From a virus (lineage: Duplodnaviria > Heunggongvirae > Uroviricota > Caudoviricetes), in IMG/VR virus record IMGVR_UViG_2737471864_000005: a DNA stretch of 10,260 bases; one strand, 5' to 3'. Positions 1-10,260 of the stretch are shown here, one piece after another (positions within the stretch are counted from its first letter, which is position 1; each line of letters opens with the position of its first letter). Below the pieces are notes generated by a model that saw only the letters and a program-made list of their open reading frames with translations, searched no databases and was not told the DNA's origin. A program made the translations under genes and the position numbers.

Positions 1-30
1 TAAGTTGGAGTCATTACCCTCAAAATTTAA

Positions 31-71
31 AAATAAATAAAAAAAGGCGAAGCGTGAATACACGCCACGCC
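31..71 (-). terminator. Putative intrinsic terminator after the capsid gene
   Basis: Hairpin 46-71 (GGCG/CGCC and GCGTG/CACGC stems, AATA loop) followed on the minus strand by a T-run (complement of A-rich 31-45), 18 nt after the capsid stop. Confidence 0.55.
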
Positions 72-89
72 TCTATTACACGTTAAATA

Positions 90-1118
90 TTATTTAACAG
101 TGATTTGAACGGAGAAGCCAACGCCGTGGTTTACAACCATCTGGCTATTCTCTGTAACAACGTTAACAGCATCCCCGCGAGCAGACTCGTAACTGTAGCT
201 ATACACCTCAGCAGGAGCGGCATTAATCAGTTCAAAGGTGCTGGAAGCAGCCCCGTAGATGTTCTGATATACGTTAGAGCCTTTAGCAAACTTCGGAACA
301 GCTACAGCGTCTGCGGTCATATGTGCAAGGTGTAGCGGATCAGTCACTTTGATCAGGTCAATGTTAGTTCCTGGAATGGTGAAAGTAGTTACACCTGGTA
401 GCAGGGAACGCACATTAAACACCACGTTGGCATCGTCTACAGGGCTTGCATATTGGAAAGCATTGACCATACCAACACTGTAACGAATAGCGTTGAATGC
501 CGCAGGCTTACAGAATACTACGATACGCTCTACAGCAGCCGCCTGGCTTTGTGCTTTCTCCATAATATCCGTAGCAAGCTGGTCAAATTGCTTGAAAACG
601 GTCATTGTGTCAGTGGCGGAGGCGTTCACAGTGGCTTTCATAGGTGTCACATTAAACAGCTTGCCCCATTCGATAAGAACATCATCAGTTTTAGGCGTGT
701 AAGTTTTACCGCTAAACAGAGATGCAGCCAACACGCTCTCTTTTGTACGCTGATACGCTACGTGGTGTTTAGCGATATATTCCGCATAGATATCAGTGAG
801 TGTTTCCTGAAAATCAGTGCCAGGTTTACGTTTGCCTTGAACATCAGAAGGTCTAATCACATCTTCACGAAGAAAATACGGGATTTCAATCAGCCATTCT
901 TTACCTTGTTCTCGCTTAGTAACATTGTGTTCAGAACTAAAACGGCTTGTCTCTTTGTTAAAGAGAGATTCGTTGCTTTCGACAAGCTGTGAAACAGCTA
1001 CTTTGTGAGATGTAACCCCTACAGAATCCGTAAAATCAAGAGTAGAAAGCAGATAGTTTCTAGTGCTATGCGCAGAGAACAGAGGAGCTAAATCAACGTA
1101 ATCATTACCTAGAATCAT
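90..1118 (-). CDS. Major capsid protein, lambda gpE-like family
   Basis: 342-aa ORF, close to lambda gpE length. By-eye matches to remembered lambda gpE: FTDSVGVTSHKVAVSQL vs FRESYPFTTEKVYLSQI, SGKTYT vs KGKYTM, C-terminal GFSVQIT vs FVSVQLA. AAGGA SD 10 nt upstream of ATG; 18-nt gap to upstream gene. Confidence 0.8.
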   Translation of the reverse strand: MILGNDYVDLAPLFSAHSTRNYLLSTLDFTDSVGVTSHKVAVSQLVESNESLFNKETSRFSSEHNVTKREQGKEWLIEIPYFLREDVIRPSDVQGKRKPGTDFQETLTDIYAEYIAKHHVAYQRTKESVLAASLFSGKTYTPKTDDVLIEWGKLFNVTPMKATVNASATDTMTVFKQFDQLATDIMEKAQSQAAAVERIVVFCKPAAFNAIRYSVGMVNAFQYASPVDDANVVFNVRSLLPGVTTFTIPGTNIDLIKVTDPLHLAHMTADAVAVPKFAKGSNVYQNIYGAASSTFELINAAPAEVYSYSYESARGDAVNVVTENSQMVVNHGVGFSVQITVK

Positions 1119-1136
1119 TTATTATTATTCCTTTTA

Positions 1137-1499
1137 TTAAGAAGTGAAAACAGAATGGAACCCTTCAAGCTGGAAGCCTTTTTTAATTAATGCTGTTTTT
1201 GCTGCTTCACTTACAGCATTCAGCGCATCAGCTTTGATGCAGACAAGGCCAGCATTGCTACGTAGCACATCTACAGGCTTGTTTTCTCCAGCCGTTACAA
1301 ATTCACTCATAACAACATAGATATCATCTCCTGATTCATATTTAGCGCCAGTGCTGGTGATCAAGTCGCCGCACTCAACATCAGCAGGAAGAGAAGCAAA
1401 AACCTTGCTTTCTACAGAGGCAAACGGATCAGTACAATAAGCCACCAGATCTGTAAAAGTCTTTCGACTTGGAAATAGAGCGTCTAAATCAATAATCAT
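1137..1499 (-). CDS. Putative head decoration protein (gpD-like by size and position)
   Basis: 120-aa ORF immediately upstream of the gpE-like gene, as D precedes E in lambda; strong AAGGAG SD. Sequence similarity to lambda gpD is weak by eye, so the function rests mainly on synteny and size. Confidence 0.5.
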   Translation of the reverse strand: MIIDLDALFPSRKTFTDLVAYCTDPFASVESKVFASLPADVECGDLITSTGAKYESGDDIYVVMSEFVTAGENKPVDVLRSNAGLVCIKADALNAVSEAAKTALIKKGFQLEGFHSVFTS

Positions 1500-1708
1500 T
1501 TAGTAATCTCCTTAGCTTTTAATTTGATTAATTCATTAAGGGAAGGTGTAGACGGAGAAGAAGGAGAAAAATATTTTTCAACACATCTTTCTACTTCCTC
1601 TACAGAACACCCAGCGTATTTAGCTACCATTTCGGTAATTTGTGGATTGATCTTTAGCATTTCATCGCGATACTTGATGATTTGCTCTTTATCATTTAAG
1701 AACAACAT
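1496..1708 (-). CDS. Hypothetical 70-aa protein, first gene of the capsid operon
   Basis: ORF whose TGA stop overlaps the ATG of the downstream gene (ATGA overlap at 1496-1499), suggesting translational coupling. No recognisable motif. Confidence 0.45.
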   Translation of the reverse strand: MLFLNDKEQIIKYRDEMLKINPQITEMVAKYAGCSVEEVERCVEKYFSPSSPSTPSLNELIKLKAKEITK

Positions 1709-1830
1709 TTATATAAACCTTGTTACCTTGTTTAAAGTAAGAAATACAACTTTTAAGTTGCATAACGGGCAAAATAAAAGGCAGCATTTAAAGCCGCCTT
1801 TTATTAACTTGTACCTATGTAATTACCCTA

Positions 1831-1862
1831 TGTTATGCATACTCCAAGATGTATGCATAACA
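1831..1862. promoter_or_regulatory. Perfect 12-bp inverted repeat, candidate operator upstream of the capsid operon
   Basis: TGTTATGCATAC (1831-1842), 8-nt spacer, GTATGCATAACA (1851-1862), exact reverse complements, about 130 bp upstream of the operon start codon at 1708. Confidence 0.5.
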
Positions 1863-1882
1863 AAGGAAAAAAGAGGTATAAT
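1854..1882 (+). promoter_or_regulatory. Possible plus-strand sigma70-like promoter overlapping the palindrome
   Basis: Exact TATAAT at 1877-1882 with a weak -35-like TGCATA about 17 bp upstream; would drive a short transcript toward the weak hairpin plus T-tract at 2041-2062. Confidence 0.25.
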
Positions 1883-2060
1883 GACACAGTATTTACTTAA
1901 GGAGGAGGAGAAGCGGGGAGCGGAGATTTTACTCCCCTTTAACGACAAGAAGAATTTTTAATATCGAACCAATAAAGGAAAAATAATCACCCCTATATAA
2001 TTATATTAACATACAATATATGAAATGCCAAGATATTTTACAACTTTTTTGTTGCTTTTT

Positions 2061-2399
2061 TTATTCTTCTGTGATAGCAGCGCCTAAGCGTTGTGCGAGT
2101 TCGATAAGGCCATCTCCCACATAGCGAACATCAGATTCAATATCTTCTATCCAGTTTGATAGCTCCCATATCTGATCCGCTGTTAGATATGCGTTCTCAC
2201 GCTTACAGAGCATCTCTACACGCTTAGAGAGGTGCTCAAAGGCATTCACAGCTAAATCCCAGTGTTTAAACGCCTCATTGAGTGCCGCTGGCGTGTTTTC
2301 TCTGTATGCTTCAAGTTCAGCGCGGTTTAAAGGCAGGAGGTAATCATCCTCATAATAATTAATTAGTGAGTAAATTGTGTCATACGTGTTTTTGTTCAT
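2061..2399 (-). CDS. Hypothetical acidic protein (112 aa from preferred start)
   Basis: ORF track gives 2061..2426; I prefer the ATG at 2399, which has a GGAG SD 9 nt upstream and sits just after the upstream gene stop (2401-2403). No recognisable domain. Confidence 0.5.
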   Translation of the reverse strand: MNKNTYDTIYSLINYYEDDYLLPLNRAELEAYRENTPAALNEAFKHWDLAVNAFEHLSKRVEMLCKRENAYLTADQIWELSNWIEDIESDVRYVGDGLIELAQRLGAAITEE

Positions 2400-2400
2400 A

Positions 2401-2811
2401 TTAAAAGTCTCCATAGTGATCAGCATTCTCTAAAATCTGGAAGTCTGGGACTAAGTTATTTAGGCCATTGGTGGCGAGATAACCGACGTAGTGGTTATAG
2501 TCTTCAAATCCTAAAATCTGGTATTTGCGCAAATCAGAGCTATCAACGATATACTCTTTTCTTTTTCTAGGTTTCCAGAATACGCCAGGTGTTGAAGATA
2601 AGATTTCTTGTAATGCGTTAAATTCATCTCCGCAAGGCACAGAGGGAGAATGTTCTATGATCTCTGTTTTCCATTCGCCAGGGGCGCTATTTTGCTTGGA
2701 GAGCGTAACTAGCTCTTTAAAGTCTTTACGTCTTAGAATAGATTTAGGTTTACTTAGAAGAGAAGCTGAATCACCGATTTTCTTAACAACGTTGTTTTTT
2801 CTTTTTGCCAT
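2401..2811 (-). CDS. Hypothetical protein with basic N-terminus (136 aa)
   Basis: ORF with AAGGA SD upstream; lysine/arginine-rich N-terminus (MAKRKNNVVKK). No recognisable domain. Confidence 0.55.
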   Translation of the reverse strand: MAKRKNNVVKKIGDSASLLSKPKSILRRKDFKELVTLSKQNSAPGEWKTEIIEHSPSVPCGDEFNALQEILSSTPGVFWKPRKRKEYIVDSSDLRKYQILGFEDYNHYVGYLATNGLNNLVPDFQILENADHYGDF

Positions 2812-2902
2812 TATTTACTTTTCCTTTTCTTTTAAAGGAAAACACCCCGAAGTATGTTTCTACGAGCATAAAAAACAACAACCACCACATAGCTATTACC
2901 AT
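2783..2902 (-). CDS. Candidate small hydrophobic peptide (39 aa), low confidence
   Basis: Hand translation of the 132-bp gap between the 92-aa and 136-aa genes: MVIAMWWLLFFMLVETYFGVFSFKRKGKVNNGKKKKQRC, hydrophobic N-terminus with basic tail, AAGGA 10 nt upstream. Overlaps the start of the 136-aa gene out of frame; could be a chance ORF in AT-rich DNA. Confidence 0.2.
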   Translation of the reverse strand: MVIAMWWLLFFMLVETYFGVFSFKRKGKVNNGKKKKQRC

Positions 2903-2943
2903 AATAATGTTTTCCTTTTATATTTTAATTACATAGAGAGATT

Positions 2944-3222
2944 TTAGAGAGTGGAATAGATGAAGTCTATTTCTCTGTCTAGTCTTTTGAGATTGAATGT
3001 AGAGAAAGATAATTCTTTAATCTCAATAACACCGAAGTTTGATAGCTGTTTCAGCCAGAATTTTAAACCATCTTCAGAGCACCCTGCTCGGTGTAACACA
3101 TCGCTATATTTTAGCGGTGTTGGCTTTCCTTTATAGAGGTAAGCAAGTGTTTCGTAGATGCGTTTTCCTGTGTCATTACACTGAATTCTGTCTACTTGAT
3201 TTTTTACTAAATATTGAATCAT
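2944..3222 (-). CDS. Hypothetical small protein, possibly DNA-binding (92 aa)
   Basis: ORF with strong AAGGAGG SD; 11-nt gap after the upstream gene. Possible helix-turn-helix-like segment, not verifiable by eye. Confidence 0.5.
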   Translation of the reverse strand: MIQYLVKNQVDRIQCNDTGKRIYETLAYLYKGKPTPLKYSDVLHRAGCSEDGLKFWLKQLSNFGVIEIKELSFSTFNLKRLDREIDFIYSTL

Positions 3223-3233
3223 AACCCTCCTTA

Positions 3234-3905
3234 TTAAAATGGAATATCAAAGTCTTCATATACTTTGGGATGTTTCTTAGCAAAATATGCCTCAATACCA
3301 TTTGGTAGCTTTAACCTGTGCTTATAGGCTAACGATGTTGCAAATTCTATAAATGATGCTCCTCCTGTTCTTTTGTGTTTCTCCTGGATGATAAGAGAGG
3401 AAAAATTCTCTAACACATCCTCCTCATTATCATTAGCTACCTTTTCACTTGATGAAACAGGTGTTTCTTCCGTCTCCCAGGGTAAAGGCGTATCCCAATC
3501 ATCATCAAGAACATCAAAAGAAGGCTGTTTATTATCTTCCGTAGGGGGAAGCTGATCAGGAACAGTTTTAACAGTAGCTTCTTGTTGTGTCTGGGCTTCT
3601 TGTTCATAAGGAAGGACAATATAAGCATTTGTGCTACCTGCCCTTTCCTCAATCTTCAACCATCCAAAAGAAACAAGATCTTTGATATGACGGCGTACCG
3701 TCTGATCTGTACCTACTCCTAACCGCTCACCAATACCTTTCAAAGATGGTGTTACCTTTTGGTATGTGCCAGATAAACTTAACAAATAAGAATAAATGAT
3801 CTTATGGTGTAGTTTTACTTCTTTTGTTTTGCCGTTAATCACCAGGGAAGTGATTGCTAGTAAGTCATAATCTATTCCTAAAAAAGGTTTTGTATGTTTA
3901 ATCAT
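3234..3905 (-). CDS. Winged-HTH DNA-binding protein with acidic linker; possible replication initiator or replisome organiser
   Basis: 223-aa ORF with AAGGAG SD. N-terminal region (KIIYSYLLSLSGTYQKVTPSLKGIGERLGVGTDQTVRRHIKDLVSFGWLKIEE) resembles wHTH domains of phage O / DnaD-type initiators; central acidic tract (DDDWDTPLPWETEE). Function is an architectural inference. Confidence 0.55.
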   Translation of the reverse strand: MIKHTKPFLGIDYDLLAITSLVINGKTKEVKLHHKIIYSYLLSLSGTYQKVTPSLKGIGERLGVGTDQTVRRHIKDLVSFGWLKIEERAGSTNAYIVLPYEQEAQTQQEATVKTVPDQLPPTEDNKQPSFDVLDDDWDTPLPWETEETPVSSSEKVANDNEEDVLENFSSLIIQEKHKRTGGASFIEFATSLAYKHRLKLPNGIEAYFAKKHPKVYEDFDIPF

Positions 3906-3959
3906 TAAAAAAGCTCCTTGATGTAATCACGCTCTACGGCGCTACTATGGTGATAAAAA

Positions 3960-4130
3960 TCACTTGCTTTTATTTGAGAGTGTTTCAGCCTCTCTTTTCA
4001 ACATATCAAGAATGTAATCTGTGACAGTGATACGTCTACTTCTGGCTTCTTTAAATAACACCTGAAATACTTCATCAGGAATATGAAAGCAAGTGCGTGG
4101 TTGTCTTTTCTTTTCTGTAGTTTCGCTCAT
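3960..4130 (-). CDS. Ribbon-helix-helix (CopG/Arc-type) DNA-binding protein (56 aa from preferred start)
   Basis: ORF track gives 3960..4175; the in-frame ATG at 4130 has a strong AAGGAG SD 6 nt upstream and avoids overlap with the upstream gene. PRTCFHIPDEVFQVLFKEARSRRITVTDYILDMLKRE fits a beta-strand plus two-helix RHH pattern. Confidence 0.55.
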   Translation of the reverse strand: MSETTEKKRQPRTCFHIPDEVFQVLFKEARSRRITVTDYILDMLKREAETLSNKSK

Positions 4131-4149
4131 AGTTTTCTCCTTCTTTTCT

Positions 4150-4338
4150 TTACTCTGTTTCAGATTCTTTTTCATTTTTTCTTAGTTCATCAATAATCTT
4201 GAGTGCTTCATTGAAGCAAGCTGCTCGCTCTGGATAACCTCGACTCCTTGCCATATTACGATTCATTACTACTTGATGGCGAGATAACTCACCTTTTTTA
4301 AATGCCGAGACGACGTGTTCCGGTGTAAACCATTTCAT
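4150..4338 (-). CDS. Hypothetical 62-aa protein, first gene of the regulatory operon
   Basis: ORF with AAGGAG SD 6 nt upstream, directly downstream of the predicted promoter and leader hairpin. Confidence 0.5.
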   Translation of the reverse strand: MKWFTPEHVVSAFKKGELSRHQVVMNRNMARSRGYPERAACFNEALKIIDELRKNEKESETE

Positions 4339-4355
4339 AAAAAACTCCTTATTCA

Positions 4356-4394
4356 GTTAAAAGAAAAAACACCTTGCAAGCCTGACGGCTTCAA
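4356..4394 (-). terminator. Leader hairpin plus U-tract, possible attenuator
   Basis: Stem AAGCC/GGCTT with TGAC loop (4378-4391), extended by TTG/CAA with a 1-nt bulge; on the minus strand followed by GGTGTTTTTTCTTTT. Lies between the predicted promoter and the first RBS. Confidence 0.4.
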
Positions 4395-4444
4395 AGTGCA
4401 TTGATTTTGATTATTTAGAGAAGAATGTTTTCTGTCCCTCTAAT

Positions 4445-4477
4445 ACCTATTATTACATATAAAGAAACATTTGTCAA
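4445..4477 (-). promoter_or_regulatory. Putative sigma70 promoter for the 4338-to-2061 operon
   Basis: Minus strand reads TTGACA (plus 4472-4477), 17-nt spacer, AATAAT; about 100 nt upstream of the first start codon. Confidence 0.4.
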
Positions 4478-5009
4478 TACCTTTTCACAAAAAATCTGAT
4501 CTTTTTCATGCACTTACATTTTTTCTTAGCTATTCGTGCTCTTCTGTGTAGTGCTATTCTTCATTATCCGCTAAAACGCTCTAAAACGCGTTCTAACGAG
4601 ATTTTGATAAAAGCAATACATTCCCTTATGTAATGGCTGTTTAGCTCGCCAGAGGCTTATTTAAGGGGCTTATTTTGTATTTGTTAGGTATATGAAAAGG
4701 TGATTGTAGATATAAGATAGAGAGTCACTTTATAAAACGCTCTGTAAAGCCCTGTAGTGAGTTTATATATGTAGACAATGCGTTTCCATTCCCTACCCTG
4801 CTTAATGCTGTTAGAGAAGCATTTAGACCCCTTATTTTTAATTAATTAAAGTATCCTCTATACACTCCTGTTATGAAACACCTCTGAATCCTTCATAAAA
4901 CACATTATGACGCAAAGAACACTTTTCTAAGGTGATTCCCTTCCTGAATGCTGTTTCTTGCGTCAGAGAGCTACAGAGAGCTTATAAAGCTATTATTAAT
5001 AATAAAGTA

Positions 5010-5062
5010 GATAAGTAAGATAAGTAAGTAAGATAACTAAGATAGATAAGATTAATAAGATC
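5010..5062. repeat. Tandem degenerate 9-mer array (GATAAGTAA-like, 5 units)
   Basis: GATAAGTAA, GATAAGTAA, (GTAA), GATAACTAA, GATAGATAA, GATTAATAA, GATC read directly from the sequence. Confidence 0.6.
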
Positions 5063-5105
5063 AGAATTCTCTTTCGGTGTCGCCTCTGGCTTTTCCACCG
5101 AAAAC

Positions 5106-5260
5106 AATTACACGACTACAGAATGTAGAAGTGGAATTGTATTGAGGCTTAGTGAAATTACACGAGGAAAGCAGAGTGTAATTGAGCTTTAGCCACTCTC
5201 TCTTCGAGTAATTACACAACTACAGAGAATAACAGAGTTATTAAGTGTAGGAGGGTAATT
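5106..5260. repeat. Cluster of AATTACAC motifs with nested short inverted repeats
   Basis: AATTACAC at about 5106, 5157 and 5210; AATTACAC-N12-GTGTAATT inverted pair (5157-5183); CTACA-N-TGTAG dyads at 5115-5127 and 5219-5250; AATAAC-AGA-GTTATT at 5228-5242. Confidence 0.55.
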
Positions 5261-5323
5261 AAGAGGTAGAGAGATAGAGTTAACACGTAAGCAATCTGTA
5301 GATTGGTTAGGTGATTACTCTTA

Positions 5324-5495
5324 CTGCGCACAGCGCAATAGTATTTCTTCGTGGGCGTTATCGCCAACGAAGTTACACGAAGAAAGTAACGCTTTGCTTT
5401 CGGTGTGAGCGGAACGGGCCAGCCAACGTAGCCCGAAAGGTAGCGGAGTAAGGCTGCTTGCCAGAGAGTGAAGCTAACGCCGGAAGGCAAAAAGA
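5324..5495. other. GC-rich island of consecutive stem-loops (candidate structured RNA or DNA site)
   Basis: TGCGC-ACA-GCGCA (5325-5337); CTTCGT-G-GGCG-TTAT-CGCC-A-ACGAAG (5347-5372); GTTAC-N9-GTAAC (5372-5390); CGGGC-N11-GCCCG (about 5414-5434). Markedly more GC-rich than its flanks. The only ORF here (5212..5499 minus) is low-complexity and likely spurious. Confidence 0.35.
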
Positions 5496-5498
5496 TCA

Positions 5499-5675
5499 TA
5501 TATATATAGATATAAAGAATATTATTTAATTATTATTTAATTATTCTTATTAACTTATTCTTATCGGGTATCAGTTTTGATAGGGGTAGGGGTATCAGAC
5601 TTGATAGGGGTAGTCATATCAAAGTTAATAGGGGTATCAATATTGATAGGGGTAACAGAATTCTGTGGGGGTAGC
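5499..5675. promoter_or_regulatory. Candidate replication origin: AT-rich unwinding tract plus five palindromic iterons
   Basis: Near-pure AT tract 5499-5562, then TGATAGGGGTA-type units starting at about 5578, 5602, 5626, 5644 and 5664 (spacing 24, 24, 18, 20 bp). Units form TGATA-GGGG-TATCA dyads, consistent with a dimeric binding protein. Confidence 0.5.
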
Positions 5676-5716
5676 TCACAGTGACCTACCGTTACTACCA
5701 ATCATCACATAGCACT

Positions 5717-6200
5717 CTGTGTAATGTCTTTCTATGTGCGTGCCATAATCCCCCTATATTCCCTGTGTAAATCATAGAATAATGCTCTCTATTCCCTGTG
5801 TAATTCCATACTAAAAAATCCAATGAAAAGTAGCTTAAAAGTGCAATTCTTACTTTCTTCACTTTTACATCACTTTCGCAAATCCTTGTGTAGTGCGGCT
5901 TACAGAGCACCATCAGAAATTGTTGGCTAAAAATTGTTCTGCTTGTTTCTTAATGAGTTTTCTTGTTTGTGCAAATTTTAAAATTTATTTTGTTTTTATA
6001 GCCTTATTTCGTGTAATGCGTGGCATAGCAAGCCCTTTTCTTGTGTTGTCAAGACATTTGGCAACGTTCAAACATCTGTTTAGAAATGCCAAATTGTTGA
6101 TCTAACAAATAAACCTGTATAAACAGAACACCATTTAATCTATCCCCCTGTGTATCCATTAGGCATACCAAATGAATACATCTAAATCGTGTAATATTCC
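5717..6200. repeat. Dispersed GTGTAAT / CTGTGTAA motifs (reverse orientation of the 5106-5260 cluster)
   Basis: CTGTGTAAT-like motifs at about 5717, 5765, 5800, 5885, 6010, 6148 and 6188, including ATTCCCTGTGTAA twice (5758-5812). Confidence 0.5.
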
Positions 6201-6285
6201 GTACCTATAAGGCTTGAAACAGACCAAATGAATACGATATACTCATTTGCATTGAAGTAGTGCCAAATCGATACATTAAGAGGAT
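6160..6285. promoter_or_regulatory. Candidate res site (three resolvase-binding subsites) upstream of the recombinase
   Basis: ACCAAATGAATAC at 6167-6180 and 6223-6235; the latter pairs with ATACTCATTTG (6239-6249) as an imperfect dyad; third related copy CCAAATCGATAC at 6263-6274. Ends just before the recombinase start. Confidence 0.4.
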
Positions 6286-6288
6286 TTT

Positions 6289-6828
6289 ATGAGCAATATC
6301 GGTTATAAGCGTGTGAGCACTGTAGATCAGAACACTGATCGCCAGCTTGCAGGAGTAACGCTTGATAAAGTCTTTGAAGATAAGCTGTCAGGTAAAGACA
6401 CTAACCGTCCAGGATTGCAGGCGTGTTTATCCTATCTGAGAGAAGGCGACACCTTACACGTCCACTCTCTTGATCGTTTAGGGCGTAACACCTTAGACAT
6501 TCTGGAGTTAATCAAACAATTGAATGATCGAGGTGTAATTGTTCGCTTTCACAAAGAAGGAATCATTGCTGACATTACAAGCGCGATGGGAAAGATGATG
6601 CTTACGATGTTGTCGGCAGTTGCAACGTGTGAACGTGAACTGATGTTAGAGCGTAAACGAGAAGCGCAAGCCGTCAATCCTACAAAGCGTGGTAAAGGGA
6701 AGGCAGTAGATAGGGAAGGTATAAAGAAAGCCCTTTCCGCTGGAGTGTCAGTGCGTAAAACCGCCGAGAGCTTTAATGTTGCTCCTTCAACGGTGCAACG
6801 TATCAAGAAGGAAGAAGAGGAGGCGTAA
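6289..6828 (+). CDS. Small serine recombinase, resolvase/invertase family
   Basis: 179 aa. N-terminal GYKRVSTVDQ with catalytic-serine context, DRLGRN, GKMMLTMLSAVATCERELMLER helix, and C-terminal HTH-like tail resembling gamma-delta/Tn3 resolvase. GAGGA SD 4 nt upstream. Confidence 0.85.
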   Translation: MSNIGYKRVSTVDQNTDRQLAGVTLDKVFEDKLSGKDTNRPGLQACLSYLREGDTLHVHSLDRLGRNTLDILELIKQLNDRGVIVRFHKEGIIADITSAMGKMMLTMLSAVATCERELMLERKREAQAVNPTKRGKGKAVDREGIKKALSAGVSVRKTAESFNVAPSTVQRIKKEEEEA

Positions 6829-6836
6829 TGCCTCCT
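6818..6836 (+). terminator. Hairpin overlapping the recombinase stop codon
   Basis: AGGAGGC-GTAAT-GCCTCCT perfect 7-bp stem (6818-6836); downstream T-tract is weak, so terminator function is uncertain. A second hairpin TCTGGA-TTT-TCCAGA lies at 6851-6865. Confidence 0.3.
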
Positions 6837-7155
6837 TGATATTTGGGGATTCTGGATTTTCCAGATCGGGGGGCGCTGATCTTCGCGTTAAACATTGATC
6901 ACGTTTGCGCCGATTTCAGATAAAAAGGCAGCTATTAAGCAATACGTAACTTTTACAATTAGTGAAATTATCTAAAACACAAGTTATATAGATGAGAAAA
7001 TGAAATATTATCTTGAACAAATCAAACAAAACAACACATCATCTTGTTGACACCATGCAAAGTGAATAGTAAGCTATTATATGTGAAAATTTGCACATTG
7101 CATGCAATAAAAAATAAATGATACCTTGTTGTTGTTAAATCAATAGGGGGTATCT

Positions 7156-7314
7156 ATGCGCTTTATCTTATCCATTTTAAAAACCTGCAGAACCACAATT
7201 ACTTTAGCTGTAATTGTTACCATCATATACCTCATCTATTTTACCCCTCGAGATAAAATCGATTCACTAGCGATCATCGTTCATGCAATGGCTACATTAA
7301 CTAAAAAACTTTAA
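7156..7314 (+). CDS. Candidate small membrane peptide (52 aa)
   Basis: Hand translation: MRFILSILKTCRTTITLAVIVTIIYLIYFTPRDKIDSLAIIVHAMATLTKKL. AGGGGG SD 5 nt upstream of ATG. One predicted transmembrane helix. Not in the ORF track, presumably because it is under the length cutoff. Confidence 0.4.
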   Translation: MRFILSILKTCRTTITLAVIVTIIYLIYFTPRDKIDSLAIIVHAMATLTKKL

Positions 7315-7327
7315 TAATTTCACTATC

Positions 7328-7371
7328 AGGCGCACAAACACATCTTTGATTGCTGGATGTGTTATGCGCCT
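7328..7371. other. Long imperfect inverted repeat between two convergent small genes
   Basis: AGGCGCACAAACACATC (7328-7344), 11-nt loop, GATGTGTTATGCGCCT (7356-7371). No clear U-tract on either strand, so it may be a binding site or RNA structure rather than a canonical terminator. Confidence 0.4.
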
Positions 7372-7380
7372 ACTGGTGAT

Positions 7381-7533
7381 TCAATCCTTAAGCCATTTCA
7401 ACTCACTAAGGAGTTTTCTTTCTTCGTTCTCTCGCTGTTTACGCTCTAGCCAGGCTTTTCCCTCTGGCGTAGACAGGAACTTACGAGCGTGAATCTTGCG
7501 GTTATTACGTTTTATAGCTGCAATGTTTTTCAT
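7381..7533 (-). CDS. Candidate small basic protein (50 aa)
   Basis: Hand translation: MKNIAAIKRNNRKIHARKFLSTPEGKAWLERKQRENEERKLLSELKWLKD. AGAGG SD about 7 nt upstream. Highly basic, likely helical. Confidence 0.4.
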   Translation of the reverse strand: MKNIAAIKRNNRKIHARKFLSTPEGKAWLERKQRENEERKLLSELKWLKD

Positions 7534-8355
7534 CGTGTTGCCTCTGTATTCATATGAAAATTAACAAGTTACATACTACACAGGGAGACTACGCATAAAA
7601 CACAATACAAGTAAAGATACATTTTCAAGACAATAGGAGCCATAAAGCGCCTTTGATGGTTATACCAAAAAATAAGCGCCGTAGGCGTATCCACTAAAAG
7701 GGCTTTTTCACAAAAGCTATGAAGTCTTAGCAGTTCTTCTCTTATCAGGCACCCGTTGTACTCCGGTGGACGAAACCGTGCTAGAGCTTGATTCTTTCCC
7801 GATCAAGTTAGGTTTTGAAGAGGTGGGCTTTAATCCACTATTGCACTTAAAACTCTTCCCATCATTTAGCCTGTTTATCCTCTGCAACGTCTCACGACGT
7901 GTGGCATCATTGGACACCGCGCCAGGTGTGGAACATCTTGCTAAGAGTTTTGGTAGAAGGTTTAGAGACGGTGGCACGTCTTCCAGCTTCAAAGGAACTT
8001 GTTACGAGGTTGAGCCTGGGAACTACTCGCCCATACGTGTTACACTACCAAAGCCCATAACAACGTATAGGCGTTTGTAAGTGATAACAGAAGATACAAT
8101 TTCTTAGAGAAGTTAAGCTAAGTTATTGATTTTCTTAATGGTGCGATAATAGGAACAATACACATAGGCGATAAGCTTTGTTTTTGTTGCCTTTTTTATT
8201 GTTCATTTTTTATAGATACCCCCAAAAGTACCCCCATATCTTTTTCCGCCCCTGAAATTTGGTTGTTATTCATACAGCATATCAGGCGGTAACGCTCTCC
8301 CTTTAACCCACTTATTGTATGATAGTGCTATCCCACAATAAGGAATCAGCCAGCC

Positions 8356-8715
8356 ATGAGAATGACCAGTCGCAAAAAAGAGATACTTAGCTACTTTGAA
8401 CCGGATAACCTCGAATGGGTGACTGGTGAGATTGGTGCGCCGCCGTTCGATGTGTCGGGTGTGGCCTACCTGCTTCATGGCATGGTGTCGTTCGATAAGC
8501 GTCACCAGCTCGAATCAACCCGGCACACACTGGAAAGCATGGTTGCTGGTGGACTGCTTGAGCGGGTGACAGTGTATGAATCGCGCCAGATACGGCGCGG
8601 CGGTGATACTAACGCAACGGTCGTGCGCTACGGTTTACCCGGTCAGTGCGCTGTTATGCGCGATACTGGCGGCGCTGACAACGCAATATCAGGTGAATAC
8701 ATGCGGGTCAGTTAA
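8356..8715 (+). CDS. Hypothetical protein (119 aa), enterobacterial-type composition
   Basis: ORF with GC-rich codon usage unlike the AT-rich region to its left; weak AGGA SD. Its 3-prime end overlaps the convergent gene by 8 nt. No family recognised. Confidence 0.5.
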   Translation: MRMTSRKKEILSYFEPDNLEWVTGEIGAPPFDVSGVAYLLHGMVSFDKRHQLESTRHTLESMVAGGLLERVTVYESRQIRRGGDTNATVVRYGLPGQCAVMRDTGGADNAISGEYMRVS

Positions 8716-9250
8716 TAGCCTGCAATCTGTCGTTGATGCGGCTCAGGTCGTAAACCCGGCGTTCAATATCCAGCATCAGGAAATTGTGGATCTCGGCCTG
8801 CTCAGGATTATCAGACTCTCTGGCCTGTAATAGCAATTCATTGTAACCATGCAAGCCGCCTGAGTTTTCCGCCGGGGTGGTGCCTTTCCCACGCAGGCAG
8901 CTAATGGGCTGATTACTCGTATCGTGTGTTTGCTTCTCCAGCACAATGACGCAATCCCACCAGTCGCCAAAGTCATACGTGTAAACCAGCTTGTCACCCT
9001 CATTCTGGAGCGCCGCCCATAGTGGCGTGATTGCCGCGTTACCCATGCTTTCATCCTCACCCCATACGCGATACTCGCTACCTGGATCACCTTTACGCCC
9101 TTTCTCGAACATATACAGGTGTTCGTCATTCCAGCCAAAAGCTAACTGGATCACGGCATGAAGTTTACTAAAGGGGATTTGCTCTGGAACCAGCACACGC
9201 CGCCATATAGGTGGTTTGCTGTCTCGGATGGTTATCTTTAGCTGGTACAT
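8708..9250 (-). CDS. pRiA4b ORF-3-like family protein
   Basis: 180 aa. N-terminal MYQLKITIRDSKPPIWRRVLVP and FGW...YDFGDWW motifs match my memory of the plasmid pRiA4b ORF-3 domain family; assignment is by recall only. Confidence 0.65.
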   Translation of the reverse strand: MYQLKITIRDSKPPIWRRVLVPEQIPFSKLHAVIQLAFGWNDEHLYMFEKGRKGDPGSEYRVWGEDESMGNAAITPLWAALQNEGDKLVYTYDFGDWWDCVIVLEKQTHDTSNQPISCLRGKGTTPAENSGGLHGYNELLLQARESDNPEQAEIHNFLMLDIERRVYDLSRINDRLQAIN

Positions 9251-9370
9251 GCAAATCCTGAATAAATGCGAATCGGAAGGATAACGATACTGACGTACTC
9301 ACAATTCTGTAAAGGTGAATAAAGGAAATTTGCTTAATACGCATAAGTTACATGTGGAATAATCCCATAT

Positions 9371-9556
9371 CTACCTGCGCGGCGCTGGCTTCTTCCACTG
9401 GTAGGCAGGTGCTCGCATCATTTCGCGGAACCTGTCGCGCCGGGCTATATCGGCATTAACTGATCGTTCTATCTCCCGTTGATCTGCCTGTGTAAGCTGG
9501 TGGCCTCCGTGCTCAAGTTTGGCGATGGTCAATAAGGCTATTTCGCGTGGTATCAT
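9371..9556 (-). CDS. Hypothetical small protein (61 aa)
   Basis: ORF with GAGGG SD about 8 nt upstream; charged helical protein, no family recognised. Confidence 0.4.
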   Translation of the reverse strand: MIPREIALLTIAKLEHGGHQLTQADQREIERSVNADIARRDRFREMMRAPAYQWKKPAPRR

Positions 9557-9740
9557 ACGTCATACCCTCTGGAAGGATGAAACACGCCCGGATTAAATTT
9601 CATTTTTCGCGGGTATAAAAAAACGATGGGGCGGGCAGTCCCGGATAGTCAGGGCTGTAGAGATTTGACTACCCCCTCCCCACTGGATTCAGGTTACTGC
9701 TATTCCGTTAAGCGCTGCTTACGGGGATAGCTGCGTTGTG

Positions 9741-9766
9741 ATTTTGACCATTCAGGTCGCCGCTAT
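9741..9766 (-). other. Lambda cosN-like decamer within a repeat-containing non-coding gap
   Basis: Plus 9754-9763 AGGTCGCCGC is the reverse complement of GCGGCGACCT, matching 10 of 12 nt of the lambda cohesive-end sequence GGGCGGCGACCT. Nearby direct repeats of ATTCAGGT and GATTT(T)GAC. Could be chance. Confidence 0.2.
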
Positions 9767-9853
9767 TTCCTCACCGATTGGGTGCTACGCGCGCGCGTAC
9801 TTGTCCCGAAATACCAGAAACCGCCAGCCAGAGGATGATTTCCCTCTGGTGGT

Positions 9854-10135
9854 CTACCTTTGCCTCTTGCCGCCATTTAACCGGAAGGCGTTACCGTTCG
9901 GTTGCGCTATCCCCATGCGGTGTTGCGTTTCGGTAACAGCTTTATGCAGGTCGCCAAATTCCTCAACCTTCACGGGCGGGCGCTTCACGTTCTCCAGACA
10001 CGTTTCACGGCGGCGCTTTATCCATTCCCGATCATCGTCCTCAGTGCATAACAGCATGACTTCCATCCATCGTGCGGCAGCTCTCCGGTATAGCCCTTTT
10101 GACTCCAGCTCTTCAGCTTTCCTGTCCCTTATCAT
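9854..10135 (-). CDS. PerC-family transcriptional regulator-like protein
   Basis: 93 aa. N-terminal pattern AEELESKGLYRRAAARWMEVM...REWIKRRRETCL matches the conserved PerC/Pch N-terminal motif as I recall it. GAGAGG SD 5 nt upstream. Confidence 0.65.
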   Translation of the reverse strand: MIRDRKAEELESKGLYRRAAARWMEVMLLCTEDDDREWIKRRRETCLENVKRPPVKVEEFGDLHKAVTETQHRMGIAQPNGNAFRLNGGKRQR

Positions 10136-10171
10136 TTCTGCCTCTCAGATTATATAGATAAGCAAAAAGGT

Positions 10172-10250
10172 GTTGGTTCAGTTGGTTCAGTTGGTTCAAT
10201 TTGTAAAGATCGTTGTTTTTATTGTGTTTTTTCTGAAATGTTGAACCAAC
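10172..10250. repeat. Three perfect tandem 9-mers GTTGGTTCA plus one inverted copy
   Basis: GTTGGTTCA at 10172-10180, 10181-10189 and 10190-10198; reverse complement TGAACCAAC at 10242-10250. Located upstream of the perC-like gene. Confidence 0.6.
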
Positions 10251-10260
10251 ATCAACTCAT

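Follow-up and report, generated by a model that had tools for sequence, protein, structure and literature searches.

The 10,260-nucleotide (nt) stretch of viral DNA analysed here (IMG/VR record IMGVR_UViG_2737471864_000005, hereafter ‘the window’) contains at positions 1831-1862 an exact inverted repeat of 12 bp with an 8-nt spacer, referred to below as the dyad, which lies between the early and late operons of a mobile island of Escherichia coli. Positions 13-8154 of the window are 100% identical to E. coli LZHX12, in which the island occupies approximately 12.3 kb between a tyrosine integrase and tRNA-Thr, beside proA; in locus L001 its position is 3837-16203. The island genes are on the minus strand, the serine recombinase excepted. 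An early operon with a TTGACA promoter near 4475 encodes p62, a ribbon-helix-helix (RHH) protein, a 223-aa winged helix-turn-helix (wHTH)/replication-initiator-like protein, p92, p136 and p121. The late operon encodes p70, p120 and the major capsid protein (PF03864, 90-1118), followed past the window by a 67-aa protein, a 610-aa tape-measure-like protein (phrog_16051) and a 237-aa Dit-like tail protein (PF21821); the island has no portal or terminase gene. Between the two operons, the p121 stop codon (2061-2063) and p70 bound an intergenic region of 352 bp (1709-2060), the features of which are given in Table 1. The reading favoured here, tentatively and with a probability of roughly 45%, is that the dyad is a stem-loop of the leader RNA in a late gate resembling that of phage lambda PR'.

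The arms of the dyad are exactly complementary, both by direct reading of the sequence and by a repeat finder, and lengthen to 16 nt with one mismatch (1827-1842 and 1851-1866, 8 nt apart, 94% complementarity). Among the perfect inverted repeats of the window with loops of 3-20 nt, the dyad is the longest and, with 12 bp reached in 2/300 dinucleotide-preserving shuffles, it is non-random, as the first-pass annotation of this DNA had supposed in describing an unusually clean repeat. Within each arm is an 8-bp self-palindrome, TATGCATA, that has no further copies in the window (two copies, compared with 0.28 expected; 7/200 shuffles reach two). The stem is AT-rich (8/12 pairs), and on the sense (minus) strand the loop contains a -35-like TTGGAG, resembling the context of the -35 element of the promoter P2 described below (ATCTTGACA). 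The first ATG of the late operon (1706-1708, minus) is 123 bp from the dyad, in good agreement with the approximately 130 bp given previously.

Table 1. Features in and around the region between the early and late operons of the window
Feature	Position	Strand	Sequence or structure	Remarks
Dyad, left arm	1831-1842		TGTTATGCATAC	3' arm GUAUGCAUAACA on the sense (minus) strand; holds TTATGCA (TGCATAA on minus)
Dyad, spacer/loop	1843-1850		plus TCCAAGAT; sense AUCUUGGA	8 nt
Dyad, right arm	1851-1862		GTATGCATAACA	5' arm UGUUAUGCAUAC on the sense strand; holds TGCATAA
Full predicted stem-loop	1826-1867	minus	12-bp stem, 8-nt loop, U.U mismatch, 4-bp extension UCCU/AGGG	extension includes one G.U
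Promoter P2	2031-2003	minus	TTGGCA-17 nt-TAATAT, TG extended -10	predicted start near 1996
Leader hairpin 1	1937-1915	minus	GGGGAGU / GCUCCCC	7 bp including one U.G
CU-rich stretch	1913-1896	minus	CUUCUCCUCCUCCUUAAG	
Predicted intrinsic terminator	1805-1768	minus	13-bp stem AAUAAAAGGCGGC / GCUGCCUUUUAUU, 7-nt loop	U-rich tail UUUUAUUUU
Small palindrome, copy 1	1745-1761		GCAACUUAAAAGUUGUA	between terminator and p70 ribosome-binding site; overlaps third TGCATAA (1759-1765)
Small palindrome, copy 2 (CAAC-N6-GTTG)	2039-2055		GCAACAAAAAAGTTGTA	directly upstream of P2 -35; 17 nt, 88% identical to 1745-1761
TATAAT of the first-pass annotation	1877-1882	plus	TATAAT	outside the dyad; not conserved; faces away from the capsid operon
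p70	1496-1708	minus		first late-operon gene
p92	2944-3222	minus	predicted wHTH, H-beta-H-H-beta-beta	predicted local distance difference test (pLDDT) score 71, about 80 in the core

Relatives of the island were recovered by capsid-based searches, which gave three loci from species-representative genomes, 16 from IMG/VR and 50 from metagenomes (loci are numbered with the prefix L). They are of three types: type A islands have capsids 87-100% identical to that of the window and share its intergenic region, whereas capsid identity is approximately 80% in type B and 64% in type C. The 52 type A loci fetched, from islands 0-8% diverged, gave 32 unique intergenic variants, and 308/5426 (about 6%) complete E. 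coli genomes contained the intergenic region at 90-100% identity (BLAST). The dyad, for which related elements and candidate helper phages had been suggested as further sources, was present in 52/52 type A loci and in 307 complete E. coli genomes, and absent from the type B and type C islands examined. No copy was found in phage collections: matches to the exact pattern in IMG/VR were to the same islands only, as were those of a BLAST search of INPHARED, where an additional E=3 match in the rV5 polymerase gene was taken as chance. A looser IMG/VR scan for TATGCATA-N2-30-TATGCATA was uninformative, returning at least 120 unrelated contigs with arbitrary spacings. Searches for deeper type A relatives through homologues of p70 and p92 gave just E. 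coli and Shigella proteins, mostly of at least 83% identity (lowest full-length match 62%; p70 homologues at least 88%), and there is therefore no deeper covariation to be had.

Variation within the dyad was restricted to two substitutions among the 307 genomes and 52 loci. Over positions 1822-1871, 231/307 complete genomes were identical to the window and 76 differed at one or two positions. The more common substitution, T1840->C (sense A->G; 15/32 unique variants and about a quarter of E. coli genomes), changes a U-A pair to U.G on the sense strand and to A.C on the opposite strand. The other, C1861->A (sense G->U), disrupts base pair 2 and was confined to one lineage, represented by three complete genomes and one metagenome contig. 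The loop was unchanged in 32/32 unique type A variants; across the whole data set the dyad was free of indels, and its loop and TGCATAA heptamers were free of changes. Independent indels of 1, 3, 9 and 10 nt adjoin its 5' side, and a 17-nt deletion starts 12 nt past its 3' side. These flanking hot spots coincide with mutation-prone T runs and CTC repeats. One of them contains the plus-strand TATAAT, which the first-pass annotation had taken to overlap the dyad and which is destroyed in most relatives by insertion of a T (TAATAAT) or by deletions; in the window itself there is no overlap, 14 bp (1863-1876) intervening, and the promoter scan gave no acceptable -35 partner for the hexamer. In the L054 variant, where a 9-nt deletion had replaced the flanking sequence, the 4-bp extension of the stem was kept via two one-sided changes.

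The dyad is placed within what appears to be a short transcription unit. A scan of the sense strand recovered only two sigma-70-like promoters, at 2043-2015 and 2031-2003, the latter being P2. The P2 -35 element (2026-2031, minus) is TTGGCA in the window compared with the consensus TTGACA in 31/31 other unique variants; this base, the sole difference between the window and the otherwise identical L001 and L034 over 471 bp (1650-2120), would weaken P2. On the sense strand the order of features is P2, hairpin 1, CU-rich stretch, variable spacer, dyad hairpin, AU-rich linker, terminator and p70, with the dyad approximately 135-165 nt downstream of P2 and 25 nt upstream of the terminator, which is itself 60 nt ahead of the first late gene. 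Hairpin 1 was unchanged in 31/32 variants, the remaining one having a 1-nt loop deletion. The terminator, one pair of which is G.U in the sense orientation and A.C in the opposite one, was missed by a simple terminator scan, probably because its A tract pairs with the U tract. Folding energies were -68.7 kcal/mol for the 236-nt sense RNA (z = -5.3) and -21.3 kcal/mol for the dyad hairpin alone (RNAfold, z = -5.7). A 41-codon open reading frame (1823-1948) that runs across the dyad is interrupted in relatives by indels of 1, 9 and 10 nt, indicating that the region is non-coding; this frame was rejected as a leader peptide, as was an 11-codon AUG frame inside the dyad, neither having a Shine-Dalgarno sequence. 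Two further resemblances, an AUAGGG(G)U.AUUA repeat at the P2 start and just past the dyad, and a partial complementarity, over 23 nt, of the dyad to the palindrome beyond the terminator, were estimated to be at chance level.

Within the CU-rich stretch, CCUCCUUA is the same as the 3' end of 16S rRNA (the anti-Shine-Dalgarno sequence). It could sequester ribosome-binding sites in cis or in trans; a search for targets pairing with this seed gave generic Shine-Dalgarno matches only. A CCUCCU(U/C)..AA motif upstream of the terminator is common to the leaders of all three island types (window 1896-1913, minus; L016 ~3270-3285; L061 ~2745-2760; L075 ~2752-2765).

The leaders of types B and C, at approximately 0.65-1 kb, are longer than that of type A and unrelated to it by blastn, and they share its plan: a sigma-70 promoter right after the last early gene, several hairpins, the CCUCCU(Y)..AA motif and a terminator that precedes the first late gene by 45-75 nt, the initial transcribed sequence including ..AGGGG... 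Examples of the promoters are L016 2421-2450 (TTTGCA-18-TATAAT) and L061 (TTGACT-17-TAGAAT, by eye) in type B, and L075 2179-2208 (TTGACA-18-TACTAT with TG) in type C. Type B has two terminators, the first approximately 270 nt past the promoter and the second immediately ahead of the late operon (L016 2682-2730 and 3313-3372; L061 ~2283-2312 and ~2818-2850), with about 600 nt of structured RNA between them. In the type B leader, eight predicted pairs are preserved by double-sided changes (RNAalifold), further pairs have undergone sense-strand G.U changes, and one long hairpin occurs, by eye, in three sequence versions with the same closing pairs. The compensatory changes argue for a constraint on RNA structure in the leader of this island family, a structured RNA of the sense strand.

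These observations suggest the following course of events. Transcription of the minus strand would start near 1996 at P2, a near-consensus sigma-70 promoter, and produce a non-coding leader RNA of about 225 nt in which the dyad hairpin (12 bp plus the 4-bp extension, approximately -21 kcal/mol) would be the central stem-loop. The RNA would pass through the GGGGAG/CUCCCC hairpin, the anti-Shine-Dalgarno-like CU-rich stretch, the dyad hairpin and the AU-rich linker, and would stop at the terminator, such that the capsid and tail operon would be expressed only when RNA polymerase reads through. In this leader the dyad hairpin, if it forms in vivo, could serve as a structural or stabilising module of a leader or small RNA, as a pause hairpin, or as a hairpin that recruits a factor for read-through. 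Several lines of evidence favour an RNA element. The dyad lies between a TTGACA-17-TAATAT promoter with TG (31/32 variants) and a canonical terminator, flanked by minus-strand genes, and the layout of promoter, leader, terminator and late operon recurs in types B and C. All 12 positions are complementary, with four more pairs beyond the mismatch. Across the alignment of the three type A hairpins, 1103/1104 cells are paired on the sense strand, compared with 992/1104 on the antisense strand; G.U pairs occur in hairpin 1, the dyad extension, the terminator and the common dyad variant, where the other strand has A.C. Moreover, no usable promoter is located at the dyad, nor does any regulator of the island co-vary with it.

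There is also evidence that weighs against an RNA element. Double-sided covariation is lacking in the dyad: of its pair changes none were double-sided, three were one-sided and kept pairing and one broke a pair, a score that every shuffle equalled and which comes from type A islands with a divergence of just 0-8%, such that the data neither prove nor exclude RNA structure. A real lineage, represented by three complete genomes, has lost base pair 2. Being AT-rich, Watson-Crick paired throughout its 12 bp and composed of two 8-bp sub-palindromes, the palindrome looks more like a DNA site, and both substitutions spare the TGCATAA heptamers, which are phased direct repeats around P2 in type C. No Rfam family matched the region, either in a search of the whole window (E<=1) or in one of 1690-2070 alone (best scores 21 and 18 bits, compared with gathering thresholds of 52 and 42), and inspection by eye turned up no competing base-pairing with the terminator.

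The heptamers form the basis of the best-surviving alternative, that the dyad is a protein-binding DNA site made up of two inverted TGCATAA boxes with centres 21 bp, or two helical turns, apart. Such a site could bind a dimer of dimers as a roadblock or auxiliary operator in the leader, or could be the remnant of an operator in which two boxes enclosed a -35 element. We regard this as somewhat unlikely. The island part of the window holds three copies of TGCATAA, all of them in this intergenic region (1833-1839, minus; 1854-1860 and 1759-1765, plus). In type C loci L075, L076 and L079 three copies occur as direct repeats 21 and 20 bp apart that straddle the homologous P2 -35 element (L075 2146-2193; L076 2143-2190; L079 2160-2207; the p121 homologue ends with a stop codon that shares bases with the first box), with no further copy in 8 kb; there the heptamer is constant, whereas its flanks vary from locus to locus. 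The two substitutions of the dyad lie immediately beyond the heptamers and create flanks that are also found in type C boxes (GTGCATAAC and TGCATAAA). The 5' arm, loop and 3' arm of the dyad (TGCATAC-AT-CTTGGAG-TG-TGCATAAC) can, in addition, be aligned with type C box 2, -35 element and box 3, although this alignment is of marginal significance (p 0.03-0.06 with the G variant and 0.26 with the allele of the window). The boxes around the homologous promoter are subtype-specific in type C, two further loci having other repeats there, namely two direct TGAATAAAA repeats 21 bp apart in L078 (~2145-2175) and a palindrome, AATGAATA-AG-TATTCATT, in L074 (~2165-2185).

The position of the dyad fits this alternative less well, as it is not at the late-operon promoter and a terminator is already present downstream. 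The description of the dyad as an operator-like site, made by the first-pass annotation, holds insofar as it is a conserved cis element in the control region of the capsid operon, but the good promoter lies approximately 140 bp upstream and the terminator intervenes between dyad and operon. An operator overlapping a promoter was rejected: the TTGGAG of the spacer has no acceptable -10 element at 16-18 nt, and the only sense-strand promoters are those of the P2 region. Gating of capsid expression by the dyad is compatible with its position in the leader, by a mechanism other than promoter occlusion. Heptamer recognition, moreover, leaves unexplained the perfect complementarity of the other five positions in each 12-nt arm, and the complementarity that extends to 16 positions. 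The third type A heptamer is better read as part of the small palindrome, as a G->A change in four variants ruins TGCATAA at 1759-1765 and perfects the palindrome at 1745-1761. This 17-bp palindrome, GCAAC(A/T)(A/T)AAAAGTTGTA, occurs twice on the minus strand (2039-2055 and 1745-1761) and may be a better candidate than the 12-bp dyad for the operator of a late-region protein.

The protein that might bind such a site could be p92, which is specific to type A, a helper-phage protein, or a host factor such as DnaA. The RHH protein and the 223-aa wHTH protein of the adjacent operon, proposed earlier as binders, are unlikely in view of patterns of co-variation across islands. In L010 and L014 the dyad is identical and the wHTH domain of the 223-aa protein is unrelated in sequence to that of the window (the L010 RHH protein is 43% identical to that of the window, and the L014 RHH protein is identical over the aligned part); in type B loci L018 and L067 a 98%-identical RHH protein is accompanied by no TGCATAA near the leader; and in type C locus L078 the wHTH resembles that of the window and the site is missing. 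It is probable that the mechanism, associated promoter and binders first put forward are wrong. The 92-aa p92 is a predicted winged helix, 93-98% conserved in all type A islands, with best fold matches to the CodY C-terminal domain, ArsR/SmtB and MarR wHTH domains and no regulator annotation in RefSeq. Against it, the type C loci that have TGCATAA boxes have no p92 homologue, and those with p92 homologues have TGAATAA-type boxes instead; given its conservation, p92 remains a candidate binder, although through linkage only. For DnaA, which binds a 9-mer box of consensus TTATNCACA, the resemblance is to TTATGCA(T/C)A: the window arms, TTATGCATA, match 8/9 positions, and an arm of the common variant is a perfect TTATGCACA, but one-mismatch matches to the box occur in the window at chance frequency (8 compared with 12.5 expected). 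The motifs of other host regulators (LexA, NikR, Zur, NarL, CytR, MetJ and H-NS) did not fit in orientation or spacing. As regards a helper-encoded binder, IMG/VR and INPHARED phages gave no dyad copy, and in the first 50 kb of phage muut, introduced below, TGCATAA occurs at chance frequency and inside genes only; half-site-like matches near muut_150/151, one at a promoter start and the other with a start codon, were rejected as chance. The available variation cannot separate a leader stem-loop from a DNA site, and the two are not mutually exclusive.

It is decidedly unlikely that the dyad has no function of its own, being instead a young inverted duplication, or a relic of a promoter-operator, linked within a recently spread and little-diverged lineage. 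The youth of the lineage is attested by the narrow host range and high identity of p70 homologues; two variable positions in 32 bp is about the rate estimated, rather than separately computed, for the rest of the intergenic alignment, the indels abutting the dyad coincide with mutation-prone sequence, and types B and C share the layout with no dyad. Nevertheless, a perfect inverted repeat of 12 bp is rare by chance, no indel, loop change or heptamer change has been admitted despite independent indels abutting both sides, and the substitutions that survive would be tolerated under both functional models.

Least credible is a DNA site for another process, whether in recombination by the serine recombinase, at a replication origin or in packaging: with a total of 32 bp, its two 12-bp half-sites are in the size range of resolvase sub-sites, and the island must hold origin and packaging signals somewhere, but there is no second similar site in the island, the repeats by the recombinase gene are of a different motif (CCAAATGAATAC), the iteron array at 5563-5672 (core GATAGGGGTATC) makes a stronger candidate for the origin, the dyad stays constant where the specificity domains of the initiator vary, and the region has no similarity to any phage genome. 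A res/hix site in particular was rejected, no second dyad-forming copy being found at <=2 mismatches, as was an intrinsic terminator, the AT-rich stem being followed by no T run on either strand (plus AAAGGAAAAAAG, minus AUAGGGUAAUUA).

Elsewhere in the window, the iteron array consists of five 18-24-bp iterons within a stretch of about 2 kb that has no annotated genes (4339-6288) and a strong GC skew at 5000-5600; it is probably the replication origin. An 8-mer of the iterons, ATAGGGGT, is also found once at the predicted P2 start (1989-1996, minus). Direct repeats CA(T/G)ACCAAATGAATAC at 6164-6179, 6220-6235 and ~6263-6276, just upstream of the serine recombinase gene (6289-6828), are candidate recombinase-binding sub-sites. 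From 8155 to 10260 the G+C content rises from approximately 0.38 to 0.50-0.56, similarity to the tRNA-Thr island stops at 8154, and other strains are annotated in this part with a pRiA4b ORF-3 family protein and a PerC-family regulator, which together indicate a different island adjoining the first. ARAGORN detected no tRNA in the window.

The island looks like a phage satellite, although one that fits no described family checked: capsid-forming phage-inducible chromosomal islands have portal or terminase genes, which it lacks, and the hallmark genes of P4 are not in this island. The literature searched gave no description of it. A part of the early operon (3537-4145, comprising codons 1-123 of the 223-aa wHTH gene and most of the RHH gene) has 86% DNA identity to genes muut_154 and muut_153 of Escherichia phage muut, a virulent phage of 146 kb (Stephanstirmvirinae, Justusliebigvirus), with short matches also in the large virulent coliphages inny, Mt1B1_P17 and BI-EHEC. 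This similarity makes a virulent myovirus a candidate helper and suggests a lifestyle like that of the phage-inducible chromosomal island-like elements (PLEs). Among early proteins only p136 and p62 occur in all three island types. The small p136 (2401-2811, minus; 29-57% identity) begins with a basic stretch (MAKRKNNVVKK..) and contains a PRKRK motif that is conserved; it had no sequence match in Pfam, PHROG or PDB, and a single-sequence AlphaFold (AF2) model was unusable (pLDDT 35 throughout). There is an outside chance that all of this belongs to one system, in which undescribed E. coli satellites of about 12 kb, with their own capsid, tape-measure-like and Dit-like proteins, would exploit large virulent myoviruses (phi92/phAPEC8-like Stephanstirmvirinae); promoter, leader and terminator would keep the late operon locked, the dyad hairpin would, after helper infection, recruit an antiterminator in the manner of nut/boxB, with the conserved basic p136 or a helper protein as candidates, and CCUCCUUA would be a second regulatory arm.

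The dyad itself is an ordinary cis element, whether leader hairpin or operator-like site, and owes its value to its context, as a marker of the control region between the early/replication and the capsid-tail modules of an island that is present in about 6% of complete E. coli genomes, an interesting mobile element that is possibly undescribed. If the cassette of promoter, leader and terminator couples capsid and tail expression to helper infection, the dyad would be a convenient handle for testing this, and the three island types, with their different leaders, constitute a natural comparative series.

Among known systems, the satellite and helper context recalls the Ogr/Delta site of phages P2 and P4 (TGT-N12-ACA centred near -55), and the dyad does have an outer TGT...ACA upstream of a capsid-related operon; its TGT (1831-1833) and ACA (1860-1862) are, however, 26 nt apart, no promoter lies at the required distance, and no Ogr/Delta-like zinc-finger protein was detected. 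The 12-2-12 sites of ArsR/SmtB proteins likewise have 12-bp inverted half-sites, and the predicted ArsR/CodY/MarR-like p92 is encoded in the adjacent operon, but the dyad has a spacer of 8 bp rather than 2, does not overlap a promoter, and in type C p92 and TGCATAA boxes are not found together.

The layout agrees more closely with the lambda PR'-6S RNA-tR'-Q gate. As there, a strong, apparently constitutive promoter comes right after the last early gene, and a short structured transcript would end at an intrinsic terminator before the head and tail genes, in types B and C as in type A; a -10-like hexamer and a G run are present, by eye, in the first transcribed bases of all three types. Yet no Q homologue or antitermination match was found among the island proteins of the window scanned (Pfam, PHROG), and, whereas the Q-binding element of lambda sits at the promoter, the dyad is 135 nt downstream and type A P2 has no recognisable element. 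The dyad, moreover, has no counterpart in the lambda leader, and the candidate helper is a virulent myovirus rather than a lambdoid phage. With no Q homologue or promoter-proximal element found, the island cassette is not a member of the lambda Q-gate family.

With lambda nut the island shares a predicted RNA hairpin between promoter and terminator as a possible recruiter of an antiterminator. It also has, upstream of the dyad hairpin, a conserved motif rich in pyrimidines that ends in UUAA, and a conserved small protein with a basic N-terminus, p136, for which the model is of uniformly low confidence and no homology to N was found. The dimensions differ: lambda boxB has a 5-bp stem and a GNRA-like pentaloop about 8 nt after boxA, whereas the island has a stem of 12-16 bp, the 8-nt loop AUCUUGGA, the motif CCUCCUUAA and an indel-variable spacing of 25-38 nt, and its motif is nearer to the 16S anti-Shine-Dalgarno sequence (CCUCCUUA) than to lambda boxA (GCUCUUUA). 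A further likeness is to enterobacterial small RNAs of the Hfq type, to which the sense strand has weak Rfam matches (STnc250, sraA and STnc430, all far below gathering thresholds): in the manner of their 3' module, the type A leader combines the dyad hairpin, an AU-rich linker and a U-tailed terminator with a single-stranded, CU-rich candidate seed ahead.

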